NCBI RefSeq assembly: GCF_016717175.1
Contig: NZ_JADKFZ010000004.1
Source of the DNA: Nannocystis sp.
Lineage (GTDB): Bacteria; Myxococcota_A; Polyangia; Nannocystales; Nannocystaceae
Length of the DNA: 64,000 nt
Reading direction: 5' to 3' (one strand)
The translations under genes and the position numbers were made by a program. Of this stretch, positions 34,501 to 35,577 are shown in pieces. The notes beneath the pieces were generated by a model, which worked only from the letters and a program-made list of their open reading frames with translations, did not search any database and was not told the DNA's origin. The first letter of the stretch is position 1. Every line of letters starts with the position of its first letter.

Positions 34501-35342
34501 AGCGGCCGCTGCGGGTCGCGCTGGCGGTCGATCCAGCGGGCCTCGCGGTGGCGGCGGGCGTGGCGTTCGGGGCGACGAGCGTGACGCTGATGGCAGAGCA
34601 AGCGGTGGGGACGGAGCCCTCGCCGCGCACGAGCACGATCGCGGCCGGGGTGCCGATCACGGCGCTGGCCCTCGATCACGCGGCGGAGCGCCTCGCGGTG
34701 GCGACCTGCAGCGAGCGGATCGGCCTGGCGACGTGCGCACGCGGCGAGGTCCGGGTGTACGCGGTCGCCAGCGGGGCCGAGGTCGCGGGTCCGCTGGCGG
34801 TCGATGGCGTGCACGGGCTGGTGTTCGCGGCCGACGGTCGACGCCTCGCCGGGCTCGTGCCCGGCGCGCCGCCGGTGGTGTGGGAGCTCGCCGACGGCGA
34901 GCGCCTCGCGTTGACGGTGCGCCGCTCGCTCGGCGAGTTCATCGCGGCCGACTTCTCCGCGGACGGCGACGTGCTGCTCGCCAGCGCCGAGGCCGACAAC
35001 GCAGCGGTGGCGCTGACGCTGTGGGATCTGCGCTCCGGCGAGGGGCTGGCGCCGCCGCTGGTCGCCCACAACCCCGCGGTCGGCAGCTTCGATCCGGGGG
35101 CGCAGCGGTCCGTGCTGCTGGCGGCGCACAGCGGGCTGGTGGTCAGCAGCAGCTTCGACGGGGTGCTGCTGTGGGATATCGCCGACGCGACGCTGACGAG
35201 CCGCGCGTGCACGCTGGCGGGGCGCGAGCTGACGAGCGCGGAGTGGACGAGGTTCCTCGGCCGCGGCGAGCCGCAGCAGGCGCAATGCGGCGCGCCGCTA
35301 TCCGAACATCGACGCCGCGATGCTCCCGATCGGCGCCTATGA
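31515..35342 (+). CDS. nSTAND-type STAND NTPase with C-terminal WD40-like beta-propeller repeats
   Basis: TTG 31515 overlaps upstream stop (TTGA); NPYVGPRALRSGEALFGRDRE, Walker A YSPSGAGKSSLLQAGL, Walker B VLLIDQFEEL; C-terminal ~600 aa of repetitive beta-strand units. Confidence 0.8.
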   Translation: MTATSPAGSPANPYVGPRALRSGEALFGRDREVARLFDLMLAERIVLLYSPSGAGKSSLLQAGLVPRLHAEGFTVRPVVRVGMAPPSDAPAGVNRYVLSTLLSLEEDVPKDRQLDLAALAGCTLAAYLSRGSEADADEVLLIDQFEELLTVDPTAVAAKRVFFAQLGEALRDTRLWVVVAMREDFIAGLDPYRAAVPKKLHTTFRLELLGREAALLAVRGPAAAAGVTFELAAAERLVDDLRQVRVPIVDGGVELRPGPHVEPVQLQVVCRGLWAALPADDRSIGLADLAELGDVDQALARYYDAQVLAAARASGAPERALRLWLERELVTVQGLRTQVLRTPGATQGLGDAALTALIDSLVLRSETRRGMMWVELAHDRIVAPLRASNAAWMAKNLAPTSRQAALWDSRGRPESLLLATAAEAEALLAAAGEWTATERLFLEQSRIVRRREAATRRYQRTIRVLAAVVGLLVVAGLSVGIVLIRRAAAAALEEAEQEARASAEAAARAQAEQRAAEQALIRQLIAQVALYREQQPELAALLAVAASTRLADPWQRKAALLNAAVTQPQLRSRLASRPGDDGAGPAAFVQIAAAGGQLYALDRRGQVLRLGLEDRGQASLLPAGTRAGDFAADPVRERVAIVAGQAIELWEVGATTPTASFVLPADPAGLGDAPRPDARVWLEGLGFSADGRTLAVVRRRSDGPSRGFVIDVEARSIRPLTGKLPVSALALAPDGALAVAGLLAVDGSIVVFSGPTLARGVLTPGHADVGRVYLARFDPHRPRLLTAGEGGAATLWTVEGGTLSAPRPLPLGGGNVRDALFLADGKLVIATETRISVWSGEPETPWGSPITPPTRATATLAAVGADGLQVAVVSLADAPIHVFDPRRLAPWQLAAPRVPMTEGGDAAFQGVAPRVAIDRAGARVAATSFDRREGGRVTVLDVASGSSVVTAAGQGEQFMALAFADAGKLVAIDAAGAVTAWTVAGGAAQTLWKLPQRPLRVALAVDPAGLAVAAGVAFGATSVTLMAEQAVGTEPSPRTSTIAAGVPITALALDHAAERLAVATCSERIGLATCARGEVRVYAVASGAEVAGPLAVDGVHGLVFAADGRRLAGLVPGAPPVVWELADGERLALTVRRSLGEFIAADFSADGDVLLASAEADNAAVALTLWDLRSGEGLAPPLVAHNPAVGSFDPGAQRSVLLAAHSGLVVSSSFDGVLLWDIADATLTSRACTLAGRELTSAEWTRFLGRGEPQQAQCGAPLSEHRRRDAPDRRL

Positions 35343-35577
35343 CCCGGCCTGGTTCATGAGCAAGCAGCACATGAACCCCGAGGAGGCGGTGCAAGCCTTC
35401 GCGGACCTCGGCGCGCGCCGCTTCCTGGCGATGCACTGGGGCACCTTCAAGCTGACCGACGAGCCGCTCGACGAGCCGCCCAGGCGCCTGGACGCGGAGT
35501 GGCTGCGGCGCGGCTGGCCGCGGGAGCCGCTGCATGTGCTCGCGGTCGGCGCGAGCCTCACCGTCCGCAGCGGGTGA
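35299..35577 (+). pseudogene. 3' remnant (last ~90 codons) of an MBL-fold metallo-hydrolase gene (NAPE-PLD/UPF0173-like)
   Basis: ..[63 protein letters not shown] is the characteristic C-terminus of the family; no N-terminal HxHxDH part present; overlaps the 3' end of the nSTAND gene. Confidence 0.6.

Follow-up and report, generated by a model that had tools for sequence, protein, structure and literature searches.

nSTAND1 was defined by Kaur, Iyer, Burroughs and Aravind (eLife 2021; PMC8195603) as a STAND clade in counter-invader conflict systems. In the window analyzed here, a stretch of 64,000 nucleotides (64 kb) from Nannocystis sp., a remnant of a metallo-beta-lactamase (MBL)-fold gene has a left neighbor of this kind, in that an nSTAND1 NTPase is paired with a CHAT-SIR2 effector gene. 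The NTPase and effector genes are adjacent, and the unit is kept in a second locus, L088. Features peculiar to the window locus and L088 are an OmpA partner and the chimeric tail at the C terminus. The conflict system is the setting of the remnant, not the remnant itself.

The remnant compares most directly with the bacterial NAPE-PLD-like MBL-fold hydrolases (PF12706 and PF13483, Lactamase_B_3; COG2220, "UlaG-like"). It is 95% identical in amino acid sequence to a member of this family, the intact 311-aa protein P0392, but it differs from the family in that about 30% of the gene is left and four of its five metal-binding motifs have been lost, so that it is unable to act as a hydrolase and does not represent a functional family member. 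In P0392 the HxHxDH motif is located at residues 117-122, outside the part aligned to the remnant, which starts at residue 218. From general knowledge of the fold, we take the further ligand motifs of P0392 to be H175, HSGDT at residues 203-207, and HWGTF at H265. HWGTF is the sole metal-binding motif retained by the remnant, HxHxDH and three others having been lost; neither the full alpha-beta-beta-alpha core nor the complete set of five metal-ligand motifs is present. Human NAPE-PLD (PDB 4qn9) aligns with P0392 at an E value of 1e-54 (residues 58-310 of P0392 on 122-388), and the remnant spans just the last 94 residues of this alignment. UPF0173 (NF001911/PRK00685; TM_1162, PDB 3x2z) is distantly homologous and belongs to the same MBL-fold subgroup (P0392 against 3x2z, E 1.6e-9), but both P0392 and the remnant fall outside this equivalog, with scores of 70.4 and 15.4 bits, respectively, under the NCBIfam NF001911 cut-off of 144 bits. 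The original prediction, made from the DNA letters, had described the fragment as NAPE-PLD/UPF0173-type; the NAPE-PLD part of this label is supported, and the UPF0173 part was dropped on account of the missed cut-off.

A further comparison is with the attL/attR scars at the boundaries of integrase-type islands, which are alike in having the 3' fragment of a gene next to accessory defense genes. The locus differs from such scars in that the remnant has neither an intact copy nor a 5' half at the other end and is accompanied by no direct repeats, integrase, or tRNA, and in that the accessory gene adjoining the remnant is truncated as well. There are no tRNA genes in the 64-kb window, and no integrase, recombinase, or transposase domains were found in the genes between 16.7 and 41.6 kb (Pfam, PADLOC). 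Direct or inverted repeats flanking the remnant were not found, nor do long direct repeats flank the region of 15-45 kb. Nothing relevant turned up when promoters, terminators, and matches to Rfam families were sought near the junctions. The outer side of the scar is formed by a methyltransferase cassette known from at least five unrelated contexts, not by core syntenic DNA. A weak HTH_28 match is located near 40.6 kb.

The features of the locus are compiled in Table 1. The G+C content of the window is ~73%, and third-codon-position G+C marks the coding frames clearly.

Table 1. Features of the locus, in window coordinates
Feature	Position	Strand	Evidence or remark
OmpA-family gene, first of three-gene cassette	28594..29439	+	Pfam OmpA E 9e-15; same order in L088
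CHAT-SIR2 effector gene	29476..31518	+	Pfam CHAT E 7e-25, SIR2_2 E 1e-16
nSTAND1 NTPase/beta-propeller gene, native part	31515..35288	+	Pfam nSTAND1 E 5e-37
Left junction, nSTAND to MBL	35288..35292		Ambiguous CGGCG; blastn alignment, printed sequences
Non-native nSTAND tail, 17 codons (GAPLSEHRRRDAPDRRL) and TGA stop	35289..35342	+	MBL-derived DNA, out of frame
MBL-fold (NAPE-PLD-like) gene remnant	35293..35577	+	Codons 218-311 of 311 and stop
85-aa ATG ORF within remnant	35320..35577	+	RefSeq WP_293252429.1, "MBL fold metallo-hydrolase [Nannocystis sp.]"
Native 3' flank of MBL gene, 15 bp	35578..35592	+	Last bases matching intact-gene loci
Right junction, MBL remnant to methyltransferase cassette	35593..35594		L081, L089-L091 match to 35592; L082 from 35594
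Methyltransferase leader, conserved	35594..35660	+	Contains GAAGCGCTACCATGCGCG; recurrent homology start
Eco57I/TaqI_C-type type II N6-adenine DNA methyltransferase, full length	35661..37433	+	Pfam; PADLOC

The reading frame of the remnant opens at 35293 on the plus strand and ends ...TVRSG*, with its stop codon at 35575-35577. Against Pfam Lactamase_B_2 (PF12706) it scores 47.9 bits (gathering cut-off 27, E 1.6e-12), with a match confined to profile positions 150-200 of 200, and 89 of 94 residues are identical in the alignment with residues 218-311 of P0392. These two alignments bear out the earlier claim of a truncated MBL-fold gene. Its proposed extent, ~90 codons starting at 35299, requires correction, because homology sets in at 35288-35293, comprises 94 codons, and continues for 15 bp past the stop to 35592. 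Nucleotide identity between window positions 35288-35592 and five intact-gene loci is 92.5-93.2% (blastn, E ~1e-125), a match that lies far beyond chance. In the best 80 more distant orthologous loci listed, which come from reference genomes, homology begins at 35279-35317 and ends no further than 35591. Together, the remnant and its native 3' flank amount to 305 bp with homology.

A stop codon at 35230-35232 closes the frame of the remnant upstream; from there to 35293 the frame consists of nSTAND sequence read out of frame. The coding frame, followed by third-position G+C, switches at ~35290, in agreement with the proposal that the end of the NTPase gene has replaced the 5' part of the MBL gene. 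When P0392 was compared with the whole 64-kb window by tblastn, a single match was obtained, covering residues 220-309. No trace of residues 1-217 was detected in the window, either by tblastn with the full-length protein (E<=10) or by tblastx, and the missing 5' half is thus found neither in the 35 kb upstream nor in the 28 kb downstream. An upstream in-frame start with an HxHxDH region, as a full-length gene would have, was not found, and there is no second copy of any MBL segment in the window.

Intact orthologues of the gene could be identified, as had been suggested. Clustered at 90% identity, the 85-aa ORF has a single companion, P0121 (249 aa; on the 3-kb Logan contig L081), and a search with P0121 led to P0392, which is encoded on six contigs. 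We compared the close intact-gene loci L081 and L089-L092, the latter being four of the contigs of P0392; these loci are metagenomic. Their native gene order is nitroreductase, MBL gene, 88-aa gene, and DTW gene. Upstream of the intact MBL gene, on the opposite strand, there are a HEAT-repeat gene, a 74-aa gene, and the nitroreductase gene, and downstream the 88-aa gene and the DTW-domain gene converge on the MBL gene. Only 305 bp of these loci match the window, and their ~20 kb of flanks have no nucleotide or protein match in it. Similarly, the flanks of the best 80 orthologous loci listed, taken up to 10 kb per side where the contig allowed, gave no match in the window by blastn or tblastn. 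A close genome with synteny to the locus was not recovered among the matches listed. In these lists, every named relative of the fragment belongs to the Cystobacterineae (Hyalangium, Stigmatella, Archangium, and Myxococcus; 70-89% identity), and no named Nannocystis protein occurs among the 120 top-ranking proteins or the 80 top-ranking loci matching the fragment.

On the left of the remnant, the nSTAND gene starts with TTG, which overlaps the stop codon of the CHAT-SIR2 gene as TTGA. Its whole frame, 31515-35342, encodes an nSTAND1 NTPase domain followed by beta-propeller repeats, and its native end is a conserved terminal Cys codon at 35286-35288. The closest homologues stop 2-4 residues past this terminal Cys (...EALCPQHL* in P0242, the closest; ...QALCPGGR*; ...EPLCPGE*). 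At the nucleotide level, the L088 gene ends ...CTCTGCCCGCAACATTTGTGA, versus ...CAATGC followed by GGCGCGCCGCTATCC in the window. The window gene has thus been shortened by ~4 terminal codons and the stop codon. The resulting nSTAND1 protein carries a chimeric 17-residue C terminus, which is relevant to modeling or cloning. No more than 4 nt of the left junction are common with the native MBL sequence ATCGGCCGC, and there is one extra base; this GC-rich microhomology is too short to be informative. Both genes are cut here, given that the nSTAND gene is without its 3' end and the MBL gene without its 5' part. Because the nSTAND gene is also truncated, the junction points to a deletion or illegitimate joining and not to an element inserting with intact ends. 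The view of this junction as a recombination scar therefore stands, and the scar can now be placed to within 5 bp (35288-35292).

The genes for OmpA, CHAT-SIR2, and nSTAND1 occur in identical order in L088, with the same stop/start overlap. L088 is 69-76% identical in nucleotide sequence to window positions 28989-35274, and the two CHAT-SIR2 proteins share 80% amino acid identity. In L088 the trio has unrelated neighbors: an RCC1-repeat gene flanks it at one end, and genes for a hybrid histidine kinase and a KaiC-like ATPase flank it at the other. Judging from these comparisons, the OmpA/CHAT-SIR2/nSTAND1 trio constitutes a portable unit.

On the right of the remnant, the methyltransferase matches the PADLOC profile MTase_II PDLC03313 with 720 bits over profile positions 5-558 of 563. 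Its relative P0122, on the metagenomic contig L082, is 96% identical and starts at the equivalent codon, and L082 matches the window from 35594 onward with 92.9% nucleotide identity. In six of six further loci (L083, L084, and L094-L097), the match to the window opens at 35602. The left end of the methyltransferase unit thus recurs at 35594-35602 in seven loci, next to at least five different upstream genes. As the upstream neighbor, L082 has a 587-aa gene without a Pfam domain, L084 a 204-aa gene, L094 the gene of an FG-GAP protein, L095-L097 a 327-aa gene, and Nannocystis exedens the gene of a zf-MYND protein. All four methyltransferase sequences that were aligned (window, L082, L083, and L084) have GAAGCGCTACCATGCGCG in common. 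The methyltransferase and its leader of ~60 bp thus represent a discrete portable unit. An ancestral adjacency of MBL and methyltransferase genes was considered and rejected, with an MBL gene upstream in none of the seven methyltransferase loci. Named Nannocystis homologues of the methyltransferase are 67-70% identical among the matches listed. An XhoI-family endonuclease is encoded downstream of the methyltransferase in L083 and L094. The 473-aa ORF downstream of the methyltransferase in the window has no match in Pfam, NCBIfam, PADLOC, or PDB sequences, and its candidacy as a restriction enzyme was set aside, given that no family or structure match supports it.

We favor, with a probability of about 80%, the interpretation that the locus contains a dead 3' fragment of an MBL gene, isolated by two non-homologous junctions between two independently portable defense cassettes. 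Two illegitimate recombination or deletion events, one on each side of the remnant, would have produced this arrangement. The left joining event would have taken the first 217 hydrolase codons together with ~4 terminal codons and the stop codon of the nSTAND gene, which now continues out of frame through 17 codons of the remnant, as far as a TGA. On the right side, a separate event would have set the left end of the methyltransferase cassette 15 bp past the hydrolase stop. We observed directly how far the remnant extends, where the two breakpoints lie, that the nSTAND gene is truncated, that each cassette is portable, and that the native neighborhood is absent; the origin of the junctions in illegitimate recombination or deletion, and not in a site-specific element, is what we infer, as is the order of the events. 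The locus is an ordinary pseudogene scar in a defense-gene cluster, with no new mechanism or kind of element, and its value is annotational. The breakpoints, 35288-35292 and 35592/35594, are base-pair limits of two portable defense cassettes and should aid in delimiting these cassettes elsewhere.

It is unlikely, in our view, that the 305-bp piece was foreign to the locus, either as a hitch-hiker that one of the cassettes brought along from a previous insertion site in another genome or as filler captured when two ends were joined, in which case an intact copy of the gene may exist elsewhere in the genome. Such an origin would accommodate the breakage of both flanks within 305 bp and the absence of the native neighborhood from the 64 kb. 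The restriction of the named relatives of the fragment to Cystobacterineae, while the neighboring methyltransferase has Nannocystis homologues, also fits and hints weakly at a foreign origin of the fragment. The piece is absent, however, beside either cassette in the relatives (L082-L084 and L094-L097 for the methyltransferase; L088 for the trio), and the matches listed reach down to ~62% identity, so that Nannocystis orthologues below this value would escape. Slightly less likely again is the more specific possibility that, during end-joining of the two cassettes, an intact hydrolase gene of this or another genome served as the source of copied or captured filler DNA. If true, the filler reading would make the locus a datable record of the assembly of a myxobacterial defense island by non-homologous joining and not by mobile-element machinery.

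Less probable than either is the model of the original prediction, according to which the CHAT-SIR2/nSTAND module, or else the entire block at 19-35 kb, was inserted as a unit into a resident MBL gene, leaving the remnant as the right boundary between island and core. The remnant does adjoin the 3' end of a portable cassette, its codon bias is intact (GC3 0.95), and its G+C content equals that of the window (0.731 versus 0.732). This model is contradicted, however, by the absence of the 5' 217 codons and of the nitroreductase neighbor from the 35 kb leftward, by the truncation at the junction of the very gene supposed to have been inserted, and by the DNA to the right, which is a second portable cassette with its own sharp junction. 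Target-site duplications, att repeats, an integrase, and a tRNA are all lacking. We reject a clean insertion because there is no 5' half at the far end, the inserted gene is not intact, and no core DNA lies outside. Of this model, the portability of the module is retained, as documented by the trio in L088; a simple insertion is at odds with the missing 5' part and neighbors and the truncated nSTAND gene, and the island/core boundary has to be given up since the portable methyltransferase cassette begins at 35594. An assembly artifact, that is, a chimeric contig in a metagenome-assembled genome, is very improbable. In its favor, neither junction had an exact match in JGI metagenome contigs, but two misjoins 305 bp apart would be needed, with no repeat at either junction, and the remnant has derived substitutions of its own, unlike a copy of a co-occurring intact gene.

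We also regard it as highly unlikely that the 85-aa ORF encodes a functional small protein or that the new nSTAND tail of 17 residues is adaptive. In favor of a function, the ORF begins with ATG and is entered in RefSeq as WP_293252429.1, and over the first 63 aligned residues it does not differ from the intact orthologues. Against a function, the HxHxDH motif and at least two further ligand motifs are gone, the sequence cluster consists of the 85-aa sequence and one full-length gene only, and there are derived replacements at conserved positions. In addition, the other short MBL "protein" for which the DNA was readable, in L093, proved to be a frameshifted full-length gene. This gene was one of three looked up among many short C-terminal MBL "proteins" on long contigs, from which the idea of the MBL gene as a recurrent insertion hotspot had come; that idea was rejected. 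The 85-aa ORF had no exact match in the contig index. WP_293252429.1 is a pseudogene fragment wrongly entered as a working protein, and it should not count as an enzyme; some residual function of the fragment would be formally conceivable.

Returning to the favored interpretation of a dead gene fragment, the substitutions carried by the remnant are of interest for its decay. The remnant differs from the intact genes by 10-12 synonymous and 6 non-synonymous changes, with a dN/dS of ~0.15. When substitutions were polarized with eight outgroups, the window branch had ~6 non-synonymous versus 4-5 synonymous nucleotide changes, compared with 1 non-synonymous versus 5 synonymous changes in the intact lineage. 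Four residues are replaced on the window branch, namely Q by R, S or T by L, the invariant E of VGESL by A, and N by S. This pattern fits a relaxation of constraint following truncation, the contrast between the branches being without statistical significance at these small counts. Most of the divergence would be older than the inactivation, because GC3 is still 0.95 and the overall dN/dS is 0.15.

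Upstream of the start of the Eco57I/TaqI_C-type methyltransferase gene (35594-35660), a leader, ...GAAGCGCTACCATGCGCG..., is conserved between the window and three other loci with this methyltransferase (L082, L083, and L084), and beyond this leader the DNA of the four is unlike. In four further methyltransferase loci, L094-L097, homology to the window begins at the same point, at 35602; the alignment of the leader motif comprises the window and L082-L084. The leader may be the own promoter or 5' UTR of the methyltransferase cassette. A scan for the sigma-70 consensus identified nothing. 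On the other side of the gene, homology to L082, the closest methyltransferase locus, runs to 37533 and is picked up again at 39131-39198, so that the window contains approximately 1.6 kb of additional DNA (37534-39130). Most of an ORF of 473 amino acids lies within this segment. The ORF had zero matches in Pfam, NCBIfam, PADLOC, and PDB, and its position is occupied by an XhoI-family endonuclease in the relatives L083 and L094.

The 85-amino acid ORF at 35320-35577 is the tail of the truncated MBL gene, and it is entered in RefSeq as an ordinary protein, WP_293252429.1, under the name "MBL fold metallo-hydrolase". The apparently intact MBL copy on the Logan contig L081 contains two mutually compensating frameshifts (2120-2200), where its predicted protein, P0121, reads RAPTRCCGAALSSRGSS versus RDANEMLWGGFIIEGSS in the intact 311-amino acid orthologue P0392; this pair is probably an assembly error. 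An 84-amino acid "MBL" protein on the 23-kb contig L093 is in reality a full-length gene with frameshift breaks (5476-6255). Many of the short MBL matches may be frameshifted like L093 rather than true truncations.

To the left of the MBL remnant, predicted conflict-system genes are densely packed between 19312 and 35342 (see table), and PADLOC gave no model matching either of the two nSTAND proteins of this region. The two nSTAND modules diverge from the TrmO-like gene. On the minus strand, a second OmpA/CHAT pair followed by a Peptidase_C25-like gene (56859-63968) looks like a paralogue of the OmpA/CHAT cassette that has been completed differently. The OmpA region of this second pair is 75.5% identical over 147 nt to L088, a locus with the same OmpA/CHAT-SIR2/nSTAND1 trio and unrelated flanks.

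Features of the window discussed in the text
Feature	Position	Strand
SLOG(LSDAT_prok)-SLATT/DUF4231 gene	19312-20589	+
nSTAND1 NTPase, first of two (nSTAND #1)	20605-25119	-
TIR-caspase-SIR2 gene	25122-27203	-
TrmO-like gene	27891-28604	-
OmpA/CHAT-SIR2/nSTAND1 genes	28594-35342	+
473-aa ORF	37447-38868	
Peptidase_C25-like gene	56859-58820	-
CHAT gene paired with second OmpA	60065-62131	-
Second OmpA gene	62097-63968	-
24-nt repeat units, in TPR gene	17978-18142	
Exact 47-nt duplication, in nSTAND #1	23256-23350	
15-nt repeat units, nSTAND #1 start	25055-25114	
18-nt repeat units, in TrmO-like gene	28399-28488	
15-nt repeat units, OmpA gene start	28595-28723	

Tandem repeats within coding DNA are present at five sites of the window, and all are in frame.
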